DNA of 64,000 nt from an uncultured delta proteobacterium. GTDB lineage: Bacteria > Myxococcota > Myxococcia > Myxococcales > Myxococcaceae. Shown in pieces: positions 1 through 15,275 of the stretch. A model generated the notes under the pieces. That model made no database searches, was not told where the DNA came from, and worked only from the letters and a program-made list of their open reading frames with translations. The stretch lies in contig CAVSWU010000003.1 in the NCBI GenBank assembly GCA_963731795.1, positions 1,094,216 through 1,158,215 on the forward strand. Reading direction: 5' to 3'. The position numbers were made by a program, and so were the translations under genes. Numbering within the stretch: position 1 is the first letter of the stretch; every line of letters begins with the position of its first letter.

Positions 1-3000
1 CGGTGGCGTTGGCGGTCTGGCGCGCGGTCAGCTCCGAGGCTGGCAGGCGCACCATCTCCAGGGCCTCCCAGCCCTCACCCTCGGCCAGCCGCTGCAGCAG
101 CTCGCGGTAGGCCTGGAACATCGCGTCCACCAGGCCCGCGGGGAAGATCGCCACGAGCACGTCCCAGTGGAAGCGAAGCCCGCCGCGCGCCTCGCTGGCC
201 TGGTGATCGATCCAGACGTGGGGCGTCTCCAAGCGGGTGTGGACGGGGTGTCCCAGGAGCTGGGACTCGTCATTCGCCTGCGCATCCTCATACAGCGTGC
301 TGGCGAAGACGAAGGGCATGGCCGACGCGGCGCCCGTGCCCTGGGACAGGGCCAGCTCGCGGAGGACCTGGGTGCCGCTCACCTGGGTGTGCTCCAGATC
401 GCTCCACAGCCGCGCCTGCACCCGGCGAGCGCGCTGCGCGAAGGTGTCCCTCGGCCGGCAGTCCACCTCGAGCAGGAGGGTGGTGCTGAAGTTGCCGACC
501 ACCTCTCCGAGCCGCGGATGCAGGGGTGGCCGGTTCTGGTACAGGAGGTTGAGGGTGAAGTGGGGCGTCTGGCTCCACGCAGCCAGCACCTCAGCGTACG
601 CGGCCGCCAGCACGGCGGTGGGCGTGAGCCCCGCGCGCGTGCCGCGAGCCTTGAGGCGCTGCCATGCCTCCGCATCCACCTCGGCAGCCCACCGCTGGAA
701 GCCGCGCTCTCGCAGGGCCACCGGGGCGCTCACCTGCGGAAGCAGCGGAGCGGGTGGCAGCGTCGGCAGGCGGTCTCGCCAGTACGCCAGCGCCTTCTGG
801 TACCCCTCGTCCGCCTCGCGCGCGGCCTCCAGGTAGCGGACGTAATCCCGGTACGTCACCTCCAACGCCCCGAGGTCCGCGCCCGGATCCCGGTAGAACC
901 GCTCCAGGTCGCGGTTGATGACACGGAAGCTCTGAAGATCTCCCATCAGTAGCGGGAAGGCGAGGTGCAGCCGGTACCGCCGCTGATCGAGCCGGTGCCC
1001 CCGGAGCGTGAAGAGCGGCCAGGTATCCGGCCGCGGGTTGGCGCGAGACACGGCCGCTCGCGCCTCCTCGATGCGGCGCTCCACCTCGGCCTCGGGCAGC
1101 CCGCGCAGATCGACGACCTCCAGCTCGAACGCCGGGACCTTCGCGAGCACCTGCTGCTGTCCATCCGCGCGGACGATGCTCCGCAACGTGGCATGCCGCT
1201 CGATGACCCGCTGGAACGCGGCGTTGAAGCGCGCGACATCCAGGTCGAGCGTCTCGGCCTCGATGTAGCCCACGGCCGTCGCGCTGCTGCGCTCGAAGAG
1301 GCCCGTCTGCCCCAGCCAGTACGCCTGCTGCAGCTCCGTGAGCGCGAAGGGCTCTAGGCTGCGCTCGGGCTCGGGGATGAGCTGAACCCGCGTGGAACCC
1401 GAGCCCGCCGCTCCCCGCGCATGGGGCTGCTCCCGGGCGAGGAACTCGGCCTGCCGGGCGATGGTGGAGAGCTCGAACATGCGGGAGAGCGGCAGCTCGG
1501 TGCCAAACCGCTCTCGCAGGCGGATGATGAGCTTGACGGCCAGCAGCGAGTGTCCACCCAGCTCGAAGAAGTTGTCGTGGATGCCGACGCGCTTCACGCC
1601 GAGCAGCTCGGACCAGAGGGCCACCAGCGCGGTCTCGGTGTCGTTCCGAGGAGCCGCCACGAGCGCTGGGCGTTCCGCCTGAGCGCCCGGCTTGGGGAGC
1701 GCCCGGCGATCCGCCTTCCCGTTGGCGTTGAGAGGGAGCACCTCCAGCACCACCCACGTGGAGGGCACCATGTACTCGGGCAGCCGCTGGCGGAGGTACT
1801 CGCGGACCGCCTCTTCCGAGATGGCCGGGCCGGGCCGCGGGACGATGTAGCCCACCAGGTGCACGCTGCCCGAGGCATCCGGCGCCGCTGTCACCACCGC
1901 GTCGCGCAGCGCCTCGTGCCCGCGCAGGACGGATTCGATCTCACCCAGCTCGATGCGGATGCCGCGCACCTTCACCTGGTGGTCGGCGCGGCCCAGGAAC
2001 TCGATGTCACCGCTCGGCAGGTGGCGCGCCAGATCCCCGGTGCGGTACAGGCGCCCGGCGTCGTCCCCGGAGAACCGATCGCTCACGAAGGCGCTGGCGG
2101 TGCGCTGAGCGTCGTTGAGATAGCCCCGCCCCACGCCGACGCCGCCGACATACAGCTCGCCCACCACTCCCACGGGCACCGGCTCCATCCGGGAGTCGAG
2201 GACGTAGAGGCGCGCATTGGCGACGGGACGCCCGATGGGCAGGTGTGCCAGATCCTCGCGGGGCGGCGTGGTGATGGCGTAGTGCGCCACGTCATCCGAG
2301 CACTCGGAGCTGCCATAGGCGTTCAGCAGGGGAATGGCTGGGTAGAGCGCGAGCCACCGGCGGCAGAGGTCGGGCGGGAGCGCCTCGCCCGTGGGGACCA
2401 GCCAGCGCAGCGAAGGAAGGGCGGGCCGGGCCTGCCCTCGCGCCTCGGCATCATCCAGCATCAGGCGCATCACGGAGGGGACGATCTGCAGGACGGAGAT
2501 GCCATCCTCCGCCACCCGGTCGAGCAGGCGCCTTGAATCGCGCGCCACCGCGTCCTCCACCACGTCCACCTCGGCGCCCATGAGCAACGGCGCCAGGGTC
2601 TGCCAGATGCAAATGACGAAGGAAGGCGGAGCGGTCTGCGCCACCACGTCGCGTGCGGTGATGCCCAGATCCGTCGCCTTCGCGTAGAGGTGGTTGAGCA
2701 TGCCCCGGTGCTCGATCATTGCCCCCTTGGGCACCCCCGTGGACCCGGACGTGAAGACGACAAAGGCCAGGTTGCCGGGGGCCACACGCGCACGCTGCAC
2801 CCCGGTGCGAGCACGGATCGCGAGCAACTCCTCCACGCCCCAGAGCGCGGGACGCCCCTGCGCGGGCACCAGCGCCAGGGCCTGGGCGAGCGCGGCCCTC
2901 CGAGCCTGGGACACGAGGACACCCACGGCGCCCGCCTGCTCCAGGATCTGCGCCACGCGCTGGACGGGGTGGGAGGGCTCAATGAGCACGCACGCCCCAC

Positions 3001-4669
3001 CCGCCTCATGGACAGCCAGGATGGAGGCCAGGAAGTCGACCCCGCGATCCAGCGCGACGACGACGAGCGCCTCCGGCTTCACGCCCTGCCCCGCCAGCTG
3101 CGTGGCCAGGTGATCGACCCGCTCGGAGAGCTGCCGGTACGTCAGGCGCGCGCGGCCGGAGCGCACGGCGATGGCCTCGGGGGTGCTCGCGGCCTGCCGC
3201 CGGAAGAGCTCAGGCAGGCACAGCTCGAGAGGAAAGTCCTGGCGGCGGTCATTCCACTCCACCAGCAACCGGCGCCGCTCCGACTCGGGCAGCAGCGGCA
3301 GCTCCTTCACCGAGCGCGACGGATCCGCCAGGGCCGCGTCGAGCAGCAGGGCGAAGCCCCTGGCCATGTGGGCGATGGTCTCGGGCTCGAACAGGGCCGT
3401 GTCGTACTTGAGCTCGCAGTGGAGCCGGCCGTGGATCTCGGTCATCTCCAGGGAGAGGTCCATCAACCCCTCCTGCTGGCTCACCGGGATGGGCTCGAAG
3501 ATGAGCCCTCCGAGCTCCACCTCCACCGGCCGATCGGTGTGGAGGAAGAACGCCGACAGCTCCTCGCGAGGTGTCCGCTGGAGCATGATCATGGACTGGA
3601 AGATGGGCGAGCGGCTCGCGTCGCGCGTGGGGACGAGCCGCTCCACCATCATGGGGAAAGGGCACTCCTGGTGGGCCCGTGCATGCGTGACGGTGCGCCC
3701 GGCTGCCGCGACGAACTCCCGGAAGCTGGGCTCCCCGGCGAGGCGCGAGCGCAGCGGGAGCATGTTGATGAAGGAGCCCGCGATGCGGTCCAGCCCCTCG
3801 AGGCCCCGCCGCCCAGGCACCGGAGTGCCGACGATGACATCCTCCTGGCCCGTATAGCGGTGGAGCAGCACCTGATACGCGGCCAGGAGCACCGTCAGGA
3901 AGGTGGAGCCCTCCGCCTTGGCGAGCGCGCGGATGCGCTCGACCGTCTCCGCCCCCAGCGTGAAGGGATGCGAGCCGCCCTGGTACGACTGCACCGCGGG
4001 CCGCGAGTGGTCCAACGGCAGGTTCAGGACAGGCAGCTCGCCCGACAGCGCCTCCTTCCAGTAGCTCCAGAGCCGCTCCCCTTCAGGGCCCGCGAGCAGC
4101 TCCTCCTGCCACCGCACGTAGTCCCCGTACGTGAGCCTCAGCGGCGGCAGCTCCGCTGGCCTCCCCTCTCGCACGGCGCGGTAGAGCGTGCCCAGCTCCT
4201 CGAGCAGGACGTTCATCGTCGCCAGGTCCACGGCGATGTGGTGCAGCGTCAGGACGAAGACATGCTCTCGCGCCGAGCGCGTGAAGAGCTCCAACCGCCA
4301 CACGGGCTCGCGCTCGAGATCGAAGGGACGCCTGCCGAGCTCCTTCGCCCGCGCCTCCAGCTCACGATCGCTCTCGGAGGGCACCCTCCACTGGCGGATG
4401 TGGAAGTCCATCCGCTCGTGGACGAGCTGCATGGGCACGCCCTCGTGCACGGCGGACGTGGAGCGCAGCACCGGGTGACGCTCCGCCAGCTGGAGGAACG
4501 CCTCCCTGAGCGCGAGGAAGTCCACCTCGGACCTGACGCGCGCCGCCACGACGACGTTGTAGGCCGAGCTCTGGGGGGAGAGCTGCTGAACGAACCAGAT
4601 GGCCCGCTGCCCCTGCGACAGGGCCTGACGGCTGACAGGACGGGAGGAGACAGGCAGCGCGAGAGGCAT
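1..4669 (-). CDS. Non-ribosomal peptide synthetase, N-terminal part (C - A - PCP - Cy-like domain; gene continues past window start)
   Basis: Minus-strand frame open from ATG at 4669 (RBS AAGGAG) to position 1. Hand-translated motifs: C-domain HHIAVDLAT; A3 LAFVVFTSGSTGVPKGA (~2700-2750); A7/A8 YRTGDLARHLPSGDIEFLGRADHQVKVRGIRIELGEIE (~2040-2160); [17 protein letters not shown] (~1560-1600); downstream Cy-like FALTELQQAYWLGQ and PLLMGDLQS (~900-1400). Confidence 0.9.
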   Translation of the reverse strand, partial: MPLALPVSSRPVSRQALSQGQRAIWFVQQLSPQSSAYNVVVAARVRSEVDFLALREAFLQLAERHPVLRSTSAVHEGVPMQLVHERMDFHIRQWRVPSESDRELEARAKELGRRPFDLEREPVWRLELFTRSAREHVFVLTLHHIAVDLATMNVLLEELGTLYRAVREGRPAELPPLRLTYGDYVRWQEELLAGPEGERLWSYWKEALSGELPVLNLPLDHSRPAVQSYQGGSHPFTLGAETVERIRALAKAEGSTFLTVLLAAYQVLLHRYTGQEDVIVGTPVPGRRGLEGLDRIAGSFINMLPLRSRLAGEPSFREFVAAAGRTVTHARAHQECPFPMMVERLVPTRDASRSPIFQSMIMLQRTPREELSAFFLHTDRPVEVELGGLIFEPIPVSQQEGLMDLSLEMTEIHGRLHCELKYDTALFEPETIAHMARGFALLLDAALADPSRSVKELPLLPESERRRLLVEWNDRRQDFPLELCLPELFRRQAASTPEAIAVRSGRARLTYRQLSERVDHLATQLAGQGVKPEALVVVALDRGVDFLASILAVHEAGGACVLIEPSHPVQRVAQILEQAGAVGVLVSQARRAALAQALALVPAQGRPALWGVEELLAIRARTGVQRARVAPGNLAFVVFTSGSTGVPKGAMIEHRGMLNHLYAKATDLGITARDVVAQTAPPSFVICIWQTLAPLLMGAEVDVVEDAVARDSRRLLDRVAEDGISVLQIVPSVMRLMLDDAEARGQARPALPSLRWLVPTGEALPPDLCRRWLALYPAIPLLNAYGSSECSDDVAHYAITTPPREDLAHLPIGRPVANARLYVLDSRMEPVPVGVVGELYVGGVGVGRGYLNDAQRTASAFVSDRFSGDDAGRLYRTGDLARHLPSGDIEFLGRADHQVKVRGIRIELGEIESVLRGHEALRDAVVTAAPDASGSVHLVGYIVPRPGPAISEEAVREYLRQRLPEYMVPSTWVVLEVLPLNANGKADRRALPKPGAQAERPALVAAPRNDTETALVALWSELLGVKRVGIHDNFFELGGHSLLAVKLIIRLRERFGTELPLSRMFELSTIARQAEFLAREQPHARGAAGSGSTRVQLIPEPERSLEPFALTELQQAYWLGQTGLFERSSATAVGYIEAETLDLDVARFNAAFQRVIERHATLRSIVRADGQQQVLAKVPAFELEVVDLRGLPEAEVERRIEEARAAVSRANPRPDTWPLFTLRGHRLDQRRYRLHLAFPLLMGDLQSFRVINRDLERFYRDPGADLGALEVTYRDYVRYLEAAREADEGYQKALAYWRDRLPTLPPAPLLPQVSAPVALRERGFQRWAAEVDAEAWQRLKARGTRAGLTPTAVLAAAYAEVLAAWSQTPHFTLNLLYQNRPPLHPRLGEVVGNFSTTLLLEVDCRPRDTFAQRARRVQARLWSDLEHTQVSGTQVLRELALSQGTGAASAMPFVFASTLYEDAQANDESQLLGHPVHTRLETPHVWIDHQASEARGGLRFHWDVLVAIFPAGLVDAMFQAYRELLQRLAEGEGWEALEMVRLPASELTARQTANAT

Positions 4670-4764
4670 GCCCACTCCTTAAAAGCTGCAAAAGCCTAAA
4701 TCCAAACCTTACCGTTCATAGTGGCCATTCACGCGGTTCATACCGGGACGAGGAGGGCGCCCCT

Positions 4765-5685
4765 TCAGCCAGGGGAGAGCTCCTGGGAGAGCTGCTTGAG
4801 GACTCCGCGGAGCCAGGTGTGGGCGGGCTCTTGCCGCGAGCGCTCATGCCAGTACTGGCTCATGGTGAACCCTGGCAGCTCGAGCGGCGGGCGCAGGATG
4901 CGCAGGTGGAACGGCTTCTCGAAGGCGTGGGCGATGCGTGCGGGGATGGTGAGCAGCAGATCCGAGCCAGCGATCGCGTAGGGGGCCACCAGGAAGTGCG
5001 GGACGGACAGGCTGACGCGCCGCTTCTTCCCGAGCTTCGCCAGCGCGGTGTCCACGATGCCGGTGTCCTCGAACTCCCGGGGGGAGACCAGCGCGTGGGG
5101 AAACTCGAGGAAGCGCTCCAGCGTGAGCCCGCGCCGCGCCACGGGGTGCTCCGCCCGCACGAGGCAGACGAACCGCTCGGAGAACAGCTCCTGCCGGTAC
5201 CCGTCCTCCATGTCCGAGTCAAAGAGGCCGATCGCGAGATCCGCGTCTCCCCGCTCGAGCCGTTCGAACAGCAGGCTGCGCGCGGTGCGAATCGTGATGT
5301 CGATCCCCGGTGCATGCCGCTCGAGGTAGCGCACCAGGGACGGCAGCAGGACGAACTGGGCGTAGTCGGAGGCAATGATCCGGAACTTGCGCTGAGCGGT
5401 CGCTGGATCGAAGCGGGGCTGGTCGAGGACGTGCTCGACTCCCTTCAAGATGCGCTCAATCGGGTCGGCGAGCTCTTGCGCGCGAGGCGTGGGCTGCATT
5501 CCCCGGGGCGTCGAGACGAAGAGCGGATCCTCGAAGAGGTTCCGCATCCGGCGCAGCGCATGGCTCATCGCGGACTGGCTGATGCCGAGCCGAGCCGCTG
5601 CTCGCGTGACGTTCTTCTCCCGAAGGAGCGTGTCCAGGGCGACGAGCAGGTTCAGATCAATGCTCACCAGGCGAGGAGGAGGCAT
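4765..5685 (-). CDS. LysR-family transcriptional regulator
   Basis: 306-aa ORF; N-terminal wHTH (LLVALDTLLREKNVTRAAARLGISQSAMSHALRRMR) plus LysR substrate-binding region. Directly upstream of the NRPS gene and co-oriented. Confidence 0.9.
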   Translation of the reverse strand: MPPPRLVSIDLNLLVALDTLLREKNVTRAAARLGISQSAMSHALRRMRNLFEDPLFVSTPRGMQPTPRAQELADPIERILKGVEHVLDQPRFDPATAQRKFRIIASDYAQFVLLPSLVRYLERHAPGIDITIRTARSLLFERLERGDADLAIGLFDSDMEDGYRQELFSERFVCLVRAEHPVARRGLTLERFLEFPHALVSPREFEDTGIVDTALAKLGKKRRVSLSVPHFLVAPYAIAGSDLLLTIPARIAHAFEKPFHLRILRPPLELPGFTMSQYWHERSRQEPAHTWLRGVLKQLSQELSPG

Positions 5686-5861
5686 CGGCGGAGCATAACC
5701 GCCGGTTCAAGAGATGAGGCTCCAACCTTCAGCGGAAACCCGGACTTCCTGGAGGGAGCGCCCCCAGCGAGTCATGCTGGCTGCTGACGTGGATGGGTTT
5801 TCGGGTAAAAGGGGCGCGGCATCCGCGCGACCGCGCCACCGCCCCTGTCGAGGTTCCCACC

Positions 5862-13453: not shown

Positions 13454-15154
13454 TCAGCCCCGCCGTGAGCGCTCCACGCGGATGGCGTACTCCTCGATCT
13501 TCTTGTCCAGCGTGGGGCGGCTGATCCCCAGCCGCTGCGCCGCGCGGATCTTCCGCCCGCCCGCCGCCTGGAGCGCCTCGACGATGGCCTCCCGCTCCAG
13601 GCGCTCCACCATCTGCTGCAGGCTGCTCGGCTTCGAGGCCACGGAGCCCTCCTGGATCTCCGGGGGCAACCGCAGCGCGTGCACCTCGCCGCCCGCATAC
13701 ACGCGCCCGAGCCGCTCGCTCACCAGCCTCAGCTCGCGGATGTTCTGCGGCCACGCGTAGTCCTCCAGCAGGCGCCGCGCCCCCGGGCTGAGCACGGGCG
13801 GAGGCTTCCGGGCTTCACCCGCGCTCCGCTGAGCGAAGTGCTCGAACAGCGCGAGCACGTCCGCTCGGCGCTCGCGCAGCGGAGGCACTTCGATCTCCAC
13901 CCCGGCCAGCGCCATCGCCAGGGCCGTGTCCAGCCCCCCCTGAGTAGCCAGAAGCTGCGCGGGCGCGCTCGCCGTGGCGATGAGGCGCAGATCCACCGGC
14001 TCCTCGCCGCCCTGCCTCGCCGGAGCCACCTTGCGCGTGAGCAGCCGCGTCAGCCGCTCGACGACCGCGCCCGAGAGCCCCTCCACATGCTGGAGCAACA
14101 ACGTGCCCCCATCCGCGCGCAGGAGCGCGGAAGAGCGCGGCGGCAACCCGGGAGCGCTGGCTTCGCCGAAGAGCTGCTCCTCCACGGTTGGCTGCCGGCA
14201 ATCCACCGCCACCAGCGGCCCGAGCCCTCGCGGGGAATGCGCGTGGATGAGCCGGGCCAGCAGGCTCTTCCCAGTCCCCGGCTCGCCGGAGATGACGACG
14301 GGCTCGGCTCTGGCGGCCGCGCGTCGGGCCTGCTCCACCATCCGGCGGAACGGGCGGGACGTGCCCACCAGCTTCAACCGGGCCTGCTCCTCCTCCGCGC
14401 GGGAGCGCATGGCGGCATACGCCTCGCCGCCCATGCGCCCGAGTGCCGCCACCACCTGGATCTCCAACGTGGTGAAGCGCGGCTCGTTGCACCCCACGTA
14501 CAACAACCCGAAGGCCATGCCCCCCGAGGCCACCAGCGGAGCGCACAACTCGGAGCCCGAGGAGGCCACCTCCTTCAGCTCCAGCGCCATGCTCGCCATG
14601 GTGCGGGGGACCTCCACGGAGGATGCGCCGGACACCACCGCGGTGAGCAGCCCCTCCGGCCCGCCCAGCAGCGCCGCGGCCCGGTCCGCGTTGAGCGCAT
14701 GGAGGGCCTCCTCCACCAACCGCCGCAGCACCATGGCCTGGCTGGTAGCCCCCAGCAGCGCCACGCCCGCCGAGAACAGCGCCGCCTCGGGCCCCACGTG
14801 CGGCAGCACCTCCGCGATGGGCACGTGGCTGGCATCGAGCGGCTCCGTCTCCGCCAGGGCCGCATGGCTGAGCGGCTCGTAGATGGCGATGGTCTCCCCT
14901 ACCTGGACGCGATCGCCCGGCAGCAGGCGCGCCTCGCCCGCCACTCGCTCGCCATTGATGAGCGTCCCGTTGCGCGAGTCGAGATCGATGAGCCACGCCT
15001 GCCCCTCGCGCACGAAGAGGCGCGCGTGCCGCCGCGACGCCTTGTCGTCGTTGATCTGGATCTCGCACGAGGGGCTGCGGCCGATCGTGACCTCCGTGAC
15101 CACCTCGCAACGGCGGCCGGCGGAGGGACCGGTGAGCAGCAACAGGGCTGGCAT
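13454..15154 (-). CDS. FHA-GAF-AAA+ NtrC-family transcriptional activator (sigma-54 EBP-like, GAFTGA motif absent)
   Basis: N-terminal FHA (TIGRSPSCEIQINDDKASRRHARLF...GTLINGERV), central GAF-like region, AAA+ core (VVISGEPGTGKSLLARLIH, GGTLLL), C-terminal Fis-type HTH (RKIRAAQRLGISRPTLDKKI). The GAFTGA loop reads EASAPGLPPRS. Confidence 0.9.
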   Translation of the reverse strand: MPALLLLTGPSAGRRCEVVTEVTIGRSPSCEIQINDDKASRRHARLFVREGQAWLIDLDSRNGTLINGERVAGEARLLPGDRVQVGETIAIYEPLSHAALAETEPLDASHVPIAEVLPHVGPEAALFSAGVALLGATSQAMVLRRLVEEALHALNADRAAALLGGPEGLLTAVVSGASSVEVPRTMASMALELKEVASSGSELCAPLVASGGMAFGLLYVGCNEPRFTTLEIQVVAALGRMGGEAYAAMRSRAEEEQARLKLVGTSRPFRRMVEQARRAAARAEPVVISGEPGTGKSLLARLIHAHSPRGLGPLVAVDCRQPTVEEQLFGEASAPGLPPRSSALLRADGGTLLLQHVEGLSGAVVERLTRLLTRKVAPARQGGEEPVDLRLIATASAPAQLLATQGGLDTALAMALAGVEIEVPPLRERRADVLALFEHFAQRSAGEARKPPPVLSPGARRLLEDYAWPQNIRELRLVSERLGRVYAGGEVHALRLPPEIQEGSVASKPSSLQQMVERLEREAIVEALQAAGGRKIRAAQRLGISRPTLDKKIEEYAIRVERSRRG

Positions 15155-15275
15155 GGGGCGCGGAGCCTAGCGTCCCTCGCGCTGCGGGCAAGCCACGTCA
15201 CGCGAGCCCCGCACGACGCACCGGTCCACCGCACCGCGCCAGCCCGCCGCGTCGCACCGCCCGACGCCCGACACC

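Follow-up and report, generated by a model that had tools for sequence, protein, structure and literature searches.

Heterocyclisation (Cy) domains of nonribosomal peptide synthetases (NRPSs) are recognised and annotated largely by a DxxxxD motif, the first Asp of which was long called essential before later work reassigned it a structural role. Here we describe a Cy domain in which this Asp is replaced by Pro. The domain, referred to below as the PxxxxD domain, is encoded on the minus strand of a 64,000-nucleotide stretch of DNA from an uncultured delta proteobacterium of the Myxococcaceae (contig CAVSWU010000003.1, positions 1,094,216 to 1,158,215; hereafter the window; G+C content, 68%), in an NRPS gene that leaves the window at position 1.

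The closest described relative in sequence is the Cy domain of the epothilone synthetase EpoB from Sorangium cellulosum (PDB 5T7Z/5T81), which is the best match in both sequence and structure (∼38–39% identity, template modelling (TM) score 0.84) and shares with the PxxxxD domain the fold, the second Asp of the core motif, the Asn, the catalytic Asp and Gln, the latch Thr and, probably, a Cys acceptor. However, EpoB has DLINVD, an Arg in helix α1, a gating Phe, GDFT, a dyad Thr (LTSAL) and an oxidase (Ox) domain in its module, whereas the PxxxxD domain has PLLMGD, Gln, Gln, GNFST and FAST at these sites and its orthologues are without Ox. In active-site logic the closest relative, and the best mechanistic analogue, is the Cy domain of PchE, the pyochelin/dihydroaeruginoate synthetase (PDB 7EMY), which likewise has Ala at the dyad Thr and retains the Asp, Gln and latch Thr. 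Unlike the PxxxxD domain, PchE keeps DLLAAD, the α1 Arg, the gating Phe and the floor-loop Asp, and its donor is an aryl (salicyl) group from an N-terminal aryl carrier protein.

Other described Cy domains resemble the PxxxxD domain in their position or in the core motif. TlnC (thiolactomycin) and PxbG Cy4 (photoxenobactin) are atypical Cy domains that stand with a Cys-loading adenylation (A) domain, a peptidyl carrier protein (PCP) domain and, in some cases, a thioesterase (TE) domain at the end of the line, as do the PxxxxD domain's relatives, but both keep DxxxxD and neither has the Pro/Gln/Gln/Asn/His signature described below. Cyclisation by PxbG Cy4 is inefficient; TlnC is without the dyad Thr, as is the PxxxxD domain, but it has Asn in place of Ala, an extended loop and a working cytochrome P450 partner. 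Single replacements of the first Asp have been reported in the Cy domain of AngR (NxxxxD, regarded as inactive; PMC6836290) and in a bleomycin-like Cy domain of Alteromonas (QxxxxD; PMC3777966). These domains, like the PxxxxD domain, still cluster with Cy domains, but they are isolated cases with no described co-varying partner, whereas the PxxxxD domain belongs to a clade under purifying selection.

Domain identity and motif residues

The minus-strand frame from 2 to 4678 comprises 1559 codons without a stop (G+C content at third codon positions, 0.91), and the candidate starts of the NRPS gene are an ATG at 4667–4669 and a GTG at 4673–4675. Pfam matches on the translation (Condensation twice, AMP-binding, AMP-binding_C and PP-binding), together with the searches described below, give the following arrangement.

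1–4669, minus strand: NRPS gene, 5′ part (∼1556 codons), with a condensation (C) domain, an A domain, a PCP domain and the PxxxxD domain (open frame 2–4678 and Pfam)
3263–4624, minus strand: C1, N-terminal condensation domain (Pfam PF00668, residues 19–472)
1715–3205, minus strand: A1, adenylation domain (Pfam AMP-binding and AMP-binding_C, residues 492–988)
1439–1630, minus strand: PCP1, carrier domain and donor carrier for the PxxxxD domain (Pfam PF00550, residues 1017–1080)
29–1357, minus strand: the PxxxxD domain, a heterocyclisation-type condensation domain (phmmer against PDB, AlphaFold model and Foldseek)

The PCP1 motif GGHSL lies at 1544–1558, with its Ser codon at 1547–1549. Plus-strand open reading frames over positions 1–1440 (167–952 and 965–1357) were rejected as genes and attributed to high-GC shadow frames. 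The sequence-only reading of this DNA had held that both the domain and the gene run on beyond position 1. The gene does continue, but the Cy domain, which extends to the end of the translation as the second Condensation-type match, is essentially complete (∼29–1357). The window ends in the linker between the Cy and A domains (‘...ARQTANAT’), and the orthologues go on with ‘...ANATE(A/D)..PHVLL.ELV’, where the next A domain begins.

Pfam has one generic Condensation model only and cannot alone separate Cy domains from condensation domains of the LCL and DCL types. A phmmer search of all PDB sequences with the 467-residue C-terminal stretch returned EpoB-Cy as the best match (E = 2e-97), followed by HMWP2-Cy2, BmdB-Cy2, FmoA3, PchE and HMWP2-Cy1; all eight PDB Cy entries scored between 2e-97 and 5e-54, compared with 5e-10 for the best non-Cy condensation domain. 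The AlphaFold2 model of the domain (predicted local distance difference test, 85.7; predicted TM score, 0.86) gave a similar ranking when compared with the PDB by Foldseek: ranks 1–19 were all Cy domains (E values from 7e-44 to 3e-29, TM scores of 0.79–0.88), and ordinary C domains began only at an E value of 2e-27. Further, a neighbour-joining tree of 132 Cy domains and two C outgroups, built from capped distances, separated the Cy domains from the outgroup with 100% bootstrap. The HHxxxDG active-site motif is not found in the PxxxxD domain, whereas C1 of the same protein has HHIAVDL. The domain is therefore a genuine Cy domain by sequence, predicted fold and tree, as the sequence-only reading had proposed, and the possibility that an ordinary LCL or DCL domain has been misread, which that reading had named as what would overturn it and for which no evidence was found, is vanishingly small given the missing HHxxxDG, the gap between Cy and non-Cy scores, the Foldseek ranking and the tree.

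Residues were mapped onto HMWP2-Cy2 numbering by alignment to 7JTJ, and the map was validated by the agreement of D1620, N1621, D1625, N1751, R1757, T1830, T1856, Q1858, D1862 and Q1864 with the expected residue types; residue roles follow PMC9547227 and PMC8807600. Two MAFFT alignments, of 41 and of 364 Cy-type domains, were used, the larger set being drawn from the best 150 representative proteins of a search of 1.84 billion proteins, from word-index hits, from genomic loci and from three PDB references. After the PCP domain, the translation reads EPFALTELQQAYWLGQ (1307–1348) and then HLAFPLLMGDLQSF, which contains PLLMGDLQS; the two strings on which the sequence-only reading was based are thus present (FALTELQQAYWLGQ at 1307–1348, and HLAFPLLMGDLQSF with PLLMGDLQS at 929–955). 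The motif regions are as follows.

1307–1348, minus strand: Cy1 motif FALTELQQAYWLGQ; the final Arg of FPLTxxQxAYxxGR is Gln (codon 1307–1309) and the rest of the motif is present
929–955, minus strand: core motif PLLMGDLQS (canonical DxxxxDxxS); Pro codon ccg at 953–955, second Asp and Ser kept
482–559, minus strand: floor-loop region FTLNLLYQNR...GNFST; N1751 and R1757 kept, T1753 replaced by Leu, F1755 by Gln and D1770 by Asn
296–313, minus strand: Cy6 motif FVFAST (canonical VVFTS); dyad Thr replaced by Ala (codon 302–304), with ‘FAS’ as in PchE
200–229, minus strand: Cy7 motif ETPHVWIDHQ; catalytic Asp (codon 206–208), helper Gln and latch Thr kept, Q1858 replaced by His

The replacement of the first Asp by Pro was borne out by each alignment: phmmer pairs ‘rlvlsiDLINVDlgsl’ of EpoB-Cy with ‘rlhlafPLLMGDlqsf’, and in both MAFFT alignments the Pro occupies the first-Asp column of DxxxxD. 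In the AlphaFold model, the strand 142–150 ends on the Pro and the invariant second Asp, Asp155, directly precedes the helix 156–171, which in the predicted structure is the usual C3 loop geometry. With an E value of 2e-97 to EpoB-Cy and a Pro that is invariant in eight homologues, its position at the first Asp is far beyond chance.

The change is real, but the picture of a single substitution was incomplete, as the clade to which the domain belongs differs from canonical Cy domains at at least seven functionally discussed positions. In the PxxxxD domain the first Asp, D1620, is Pro and R1509, the last residue of Cy1, is Gln; T1753 is Leu, the gating Phe F1755 is Gln, D1770 (the floor-loop Asp of GDFT) is Asn, T1830 (the Thr of the proposed Asp–Thr dyad) is Ala and Q1858 is His, and five of the eight classical Cy motifs deviate. 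Retained are Y1505, D1625, S1628, N1751, R1757, S1831, T1856, D1862 and Q1864, so that the second Asp–Arg pair (D1625 and R1757) and the Asn N1751 (EpoB N335), which positions substrates for condensation, are all present (FTLNLL, ...QNRPPLHP). The catalytic Asp with its Gln (BmdB D1226, HMWP2 D1862, PchE D480) is present as WIDHQ, which is invariant in the eight clade members, whereas the dyad Thr of VVFTS (BmdB T1196, HMWP2 T1830) is absent. Because the same Ala occurs in functional PchE (‘FASNL’), the dyad Thr is not strictly defining for Cy domains; about a dozen PchE-like N-terminal Cy domains of the 364-domain sample also have the Ala. As counted on the alignments, the dyad position lies the canonical 32 residues from the catalytic Asp. 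Overall, the PxxxxD domain fails three classical motif residues (first Asp, Cy1 Arg and dyad Thr), and published and present evidence together show that each of them is dispensable in some working Cy domain.

The PxxxxD clade and the role of the first Asp

An initial homologous-protein search returned 17 matches, all at ≤53% identity and with no orthologue among them. A genome scan found orthologues in a Hyalangium metagenome-assembled genome (MAG) (L001, 88% identity, in a 5′-cut gene), an Archangium MAG (L004, 82%), Sorangium sp. So ce1078 (L002, 59%) and a Haliangiales MAG (L003, 50%), and the representative search added the proteins P0135, P0147 and P0165, each at ∼50%. Together with the PxxxxD domain, these form a clade of eight sequences at 50–88% identity from three myxobacterial lineages and metagenomes, with 98% neighbour-joining bootstrap; the nearest sequences outside it are at ≤46.5% identity and are mostly canonical Cy domains, and bootstraps for its deeper placement within the Cy tree are ≤45%. 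The signature Y-Q-P-D-[NT]-L-Q-R-N-A-S-x-T-[HY]-D-Q is common to all eight. The Pro does not vary among them, nor do the residues equivalent to D1862, Q1864, T1856 and Y1505, and that equivalent to N1751 is kept in seven of the eight. Single first-Asp variants were known before, in AngR and Alteromonas; what is new here is a conserved clade in which the partner is replaced as well, and no description of it was found in the literature searched, of which coverage was incomplete.

Ratios of nonsynonymous to synonymous substitution (dN/dS, Nei–Gojobori) were calculated against the close orthologues L001 and L004. For the PxxxxD domain they were 0.16 and 0.26, respectively, compared with 0.26 and 0.29 for A1 and, against L004, 0.48 for C1, the highest of the gene's four domains; the PxxxxD domain is thus lowest or near-lowest in the gene, with a value under that of A1 against either orthologue and under that of C1 in the comparison that includes C1. 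Therefore, the domain is kept by selection and appears to be functional rather than a relic, and the sequence evidence as a whole indicates a functional atypical Cy domain of a small, mainly myxobacterial clade. That it is instead inactive, as assumed for the AngR domain, with its module bypassed or served in trans, is very unlikely: although the AngR domain with Asn at the first Asp has been described as non-functional (PMC6836290) and five of eight motifs deviate here too, the low dN/dS, the invariance of the variant residues across the clade's lineages and metagenomes, and the fact that no other condensation-type domain stands between PCP1 and the Cys module all argue against it.

Both Asp residues of DxxxxD have been reported to be structural, and the first, D1620, forms a salt bridge with R1509 at the end of the Cy1 motif in helix α1 (PMC9547227). 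In the PxxxxD domain both partners of this bridge are replaced, by Pro and Gln. Of the 364 Cy domains, 329 have Asp at position 1620; Glu and Pro are each found there in 9, Ser in 8 and Asn in 4. In 327 domains a basic residue at 1509 accompanies an acidic one at 1620; both are lost in 22, and 15 are mismatched (Fisher P = 2e-23, falling to 2e-16 when the clade is entered as a single case, in either calculation with no phylogenetic correction). A Cy domain in a Proteobacteria bacterium UBA6915 MAG (L012, 10001–11299) has the charges swapped, with Glu at the α1 Arg and Arg at the first Asp, and it also has Ala at the dyad Thr; the swap reads as a textbook compensatory pair and, at the level of sequence, supports a structural role of the first Asp. 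Further, mutation of the first Asp to Ala in PxbG Cy4 lowered product only twofold (PMC9396620). Because of the salt-bridge role, the covariation of 1509 with 1620, the L012 swap and the mild PxbG Cy4 mutant, the Pro is best described as a tolerated, partner-compensated structural change and not as the loss of a catalytic residue. The clade thus amounts to a natural experiment, the Asp and the Arg that pairs with it having been removed together under strong purifying selection, and it supports the structural reading of DxxxxD; in addition, motif-based Cy calls will miss or mislabel domains such as these.

A PxxxxD motif was also observed outside the clade, in an otherwise canonical Cy domain (residues 1488–1954, signature YRPDNTFRDTSATQDQ) of P0044, a 3596-residue protein with three Cy modules; this domain keeps the α1 Arg. 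It is independent of the clade, and therefore Pro at the first-Asp site arose at least twice. A looser set of Cy domains (P0031, P0053, P0079, P0118, P0128, P0137, P0146, P0151, P0159, P0001 and P0002) is without an acidic 1620 and/or a basic 1509, with Ser, Asn, Cys or Gly at 1620 and Gln or Glu at 1509, and usually also has D1770 replaced by Asn or Pro and T1753 by Leu or Met. They are mostly the last Cy domain of their protein, in Cy-A-PCP-TE or Cy-PCP(-TE) order, and the tree does not resolve their relationships.

The Cys module, the donor unit and the likely chemistry

Because the window stops at the Cy–A linker, the rest of the module was read from the orthologues. The full proteins of L004, L002, L003, P0147 and P0165 have the order C-A-PCP-Cy-A-PCP-TE in ∼2420–2520 residues, and L001 shows the same C-terminal half. 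Specificity codes were extracted against the GrsA segment, for which the procedure reproduced DAWTIAAICK. The second A domain (A2), which follows the Cy domain, has the code DLYNMS[ML]IWK or DLYS[ML]SLIWK in L001–L004, P0135, P0147 and P0165, and both of the orthologues nearest to the window's gene, L001 and L004, have DLYNMS[ML]IWK. This is the classic Cys code of Stachelhaus and Challis. The acceptor of the PxxxxD domain is thus probably Cys, as judged from orthologues whose A2 stands in for one that lies outside the window, and the earlier expectation of a Cys module next in line holds by orthology. The accompanying expectation of an Ox domain does not: in the orthologous genes, which end Cy-A-PCP-TE, no Ox domain was detected and there is no room for one. 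P0135 (3531 residues) has a different front end, with an acyltransferase domain, a class-III aminotransferase, a luciferase-like monooxygenase domain and a C-PCP unit without an A domain, followed by Cy-A(Cys)-PCP-TE; therefore, what the clade goes with is the terminal Cys module rather than one fixed upstream module. We note that this front end resembles β-amino fatty acid initiation of the mycosubtilin/puwainaphycin type.

Downstream of the orthologous NRPS genes lies a conserved cassette, at the following locus positions (L022 is the locus of P0147).

L004, 13999–17746: cassette downstream of the NRPS gene
L002, 14002–17707: cassette downstream of the NRPS gene
L003, 7541–11167: cassette downstream of the NRPS gene
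L022, 7693–11468: cassette downstream of the NRPS gene

It comprises a class-B flavin monooxygenase (best NCBIfam matches to the MSMEG_0569 and ArsO families, at 201–257 bits and below cut-offs), a luciferase-like monooxygenase (weak SsuD/SfnG-like NCBIfam matches, below curated cut-offs) and a pyridoxal-phosphate-dependent decarboxylase whose best match is the PanP aspartate 1-decarboxylase (TIGR03799, 555 bits against a cut-off of 606). All four cassettes also carry one or two LysR genes, whereas P0165 is without this cassette downstream. A SnoaL-like protein in L004 and an ankyrin protein in L022 are additional. No P450 partner or sulfur-carrier gene was seen in the conserved cassette, and no characterised cluster of this make-up was found. 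Because atypical terminal Cy modules with Cys can carry out sulfur-transfer chemistry, this compact, conserved, orphan myxobacterial cassette, which the clade marks, is a reasonable discovery target.

The donor unit is expected to be loaded by A1, whose specificity code is VIWQVTADDK, with Val in place of the α-amino-binding Asp235 (SFVICIWQ, 2600–2623, minus strand) and with an unusual A5 region, NAYGSSECSDD (2291–2323, minus strand). The code is conserved in L001–L004 and P0147, whereas P0165 has DIWEITADD with Asp235. It suggests an acid without an α-amino group but with a distal cationic group, such as β-alanine, γ-aminobutyrate or a compound like 2,4-diaminobutyrate; taken with the PanP-like enzyme encoded nearby in the orthologues, β-alanine or another ω-amino acid would be a reasonable guess for the first building block. 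The nearest neighbours of A1 in the PDB were not informative about its substrate. DIWELTADDK is probably a code for 2,4-diaminobutyrate, but nothing on codes of this type was found in the literature searched. The clade's module order is also that of bleomycin-type lines, C-A(β-Ala)-PCP-Cy-A(Cys)-PCP, in which an A1 without Asp235 likewise precedes a Cy and Cys module. In the bleomycin-type homologues P0069, P0093 and P0080, A codes of the form VD.V.[SA]LAD accompany a Cy domain with canonical R/D/T residues, as opposed to VIWQVTADD and a Pro/Gln Cy domain here. Since β-Ala-type codes of the bleomycin-like sample proteins (VDWVWALAD, VDAVVSLAD and VDNVISLAD) precede canonical Cy domains, adaptation to a β-alanyl donor was rejected as a sufficient cause of the Pro/Gln and donor-gate changes. 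C1, in which the Gly of HHxxxDG is Leu (HHIAVDL, 4223–4243, minus strand), has no upstream NRPS or polyketide synthase gene to feed it, its neighbour being a LysR gene, and it may be a starter (acylating) or a dispensable C domain.

In the pathway that we favour, PCP1 would deliver the A1-loaded unit, probably an acid without an α-amino group such as β-alanine or another ω-amino acid, and the PxxxxD domain would join it to the amino group of Cys-S-PCP2 by means of the retained Asn and the second Asp–Arg scaffold. The domain would then most likely cyclodehydrate the product to a 2-substituted thiazoline through the Asp, Gln, latch Thr and Tyr, as PchE does, and the TE domain would release a thiazoline-4-carboxylate, which the adjacent flavin and luciferase-like monooxygenases would then tailor, as the orthologous loci suggest. 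We give this canonical condensation and cyclodehydration of Cys about an even chance. It is supported by the invariance in the clade of the catalytic Asp, the adjacent Gln, the latch Thr and the α1 Tyr. PchE, which shares the Ala at the dyad Thr, is a proven thiazoline-forming Cy domain, with catalysis assigned to D480 and a proton relay to T474/Q482 (PMC8807600), and terminal Cy-A(Cys)-PCP-TE modules that release thiazoline-4-carboxylates have precedent (PMC10127204). Several points weigh against it. Thiazoline formation is here deduced from sequence rather than read from a product, and it is the orthologues, not the window, that show A2-PCP-TE and the tailoring genes. F1755, T1753, D1770 and Q1858, which are implicated in donor sensing, tunnel closure and phosphopantetheine contact (PMC9547227), are all changed together (to Gln, Leu, Asn and His), and the clade's residue combination matches no characterised Cy domain. 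In addition, the dyad Thr of BmdB is reported, as cited in PMC8807600 and PMC9547227, to be crucial for cyclodehydration, and two atypical Cy domains with Cys, TlnC and PxbG Cy4, have no thiazoline end product (bioRxiv 10.1101/2024.12.18.629141; PMC9396620).

The last two cases suggest a different use of the cysteine, in which the PxxxxD domain would have been neofunctionalised, either to cleave the C–S bond after a thioester or cyclic intermediate and so transfer sulfur to the upstream acyl group as a thiocarboxylate, or to stop at an S- or N-acyl-cysteine, the sulfur being left for the adjacent S-type oxygenases. We regard this as possible but doubtful. The TlnC domain, with N-D in place of the Thr-containing dyad, makes a thiocarboxylate, remains active as the N352A mutant and depends on its catalytic Asp (bioRxiv 10.1101/2024.12.18.629141), and PxbG Cy4, which stops at the thioester, gives thioester/thiocarboxylate termini (PMC9396620); the PxxxxD clade, too, has the catalytic Asp and no dyad Thr, its place is in a terminal Cy-A(Cys)-PCP-TE module, seven of its gating or positioning residues are changed together, and its cassette oxygenases resemble sulfur- or heteroatom-oxygenating enzymes (ArsO/MSMEG_0569-like and SsuD/SfnG-like, all below curated cut-offs). 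However, those NCBIfam matches are weak, PchE cyclises normally with Ala at the dyad position, and the TlnC-type feature set (intact DxxxxD, an Asn–Asp dyad rather than Ala, a P450 partner and, close to the catalytic Asp, an extended loop) is not that of the PxxxxD domain, with its canonical dyad-to-Asp spacing, nor of the cassette, which has neither a P450 partner nor a sulfur-carrier gene. Loss of cyclodehydration alone, leaving a condensation-only domain that makes a linear X-Cys dipeptide, is unlikely. It would account for the joint replacement of the dyad Thr, gating Phe and floor-loop Asp, and dyad-residue mutations in BmdB and PchE shift the product to the linear form, according to PMC8807600, citing Bloudoff 2017; yet selection for condensation alone would not be expected to keep the Asp and Gln of WIDHQ and the latch Thr invariant over 50% divergence, as they are here, and PchE cyclises with Ala at the Thr position. 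For the same reason, the argument that the dyad Thr is lost and hence no cyclisation occurs was rejected as a firm conclusion.

We tentatively suggest, as a rather improbable extension, that the Pro/Gln/Gln/Asn/Ala/His clade is a new functional Cy subtype without a thiazoline end, which would yield a thiocarboxylate or hand an S- or N-acyl-cysteine to the monooxygenases; with similar reserve, this would place the clade in a widely conserved myxobacterial five-gene cassette of LysR, NRPS, flavin monooxygenase, luciferase-like monooxygenase and PanP-like decarboxylase genes. If, as in the favoured pathway, the PxxxxD domain simply makes a thiazoline, the result is a modest refinement of the Cy sequence rules.

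Genes upstream of the NRPS gene

A single regulatory gene adjoins the NRPS gene within the window, and LysR genes also adjoin the orthologous NRPS genes in L004, L002 and L022.

4768–5706, minus strand: LysR-family regulator, directly upstream of the NRPS gene and on the same strand (Pfam HTH_1 and LysR_substrate)

Further upstream, beyond the LysR gene, are unrelated genes for a GAF protein, a GDT1 transporter, an Indigoidine_A-like protein and an EamA transporter. A regulator with FHA, GAF, sigma54-activator and HTH_8 domains, a combination typical of myxobacterial enhancer-binding proteins, is encoded at 13457–15166 on the minus strand and is likewise unrelated to the NRPS gene.

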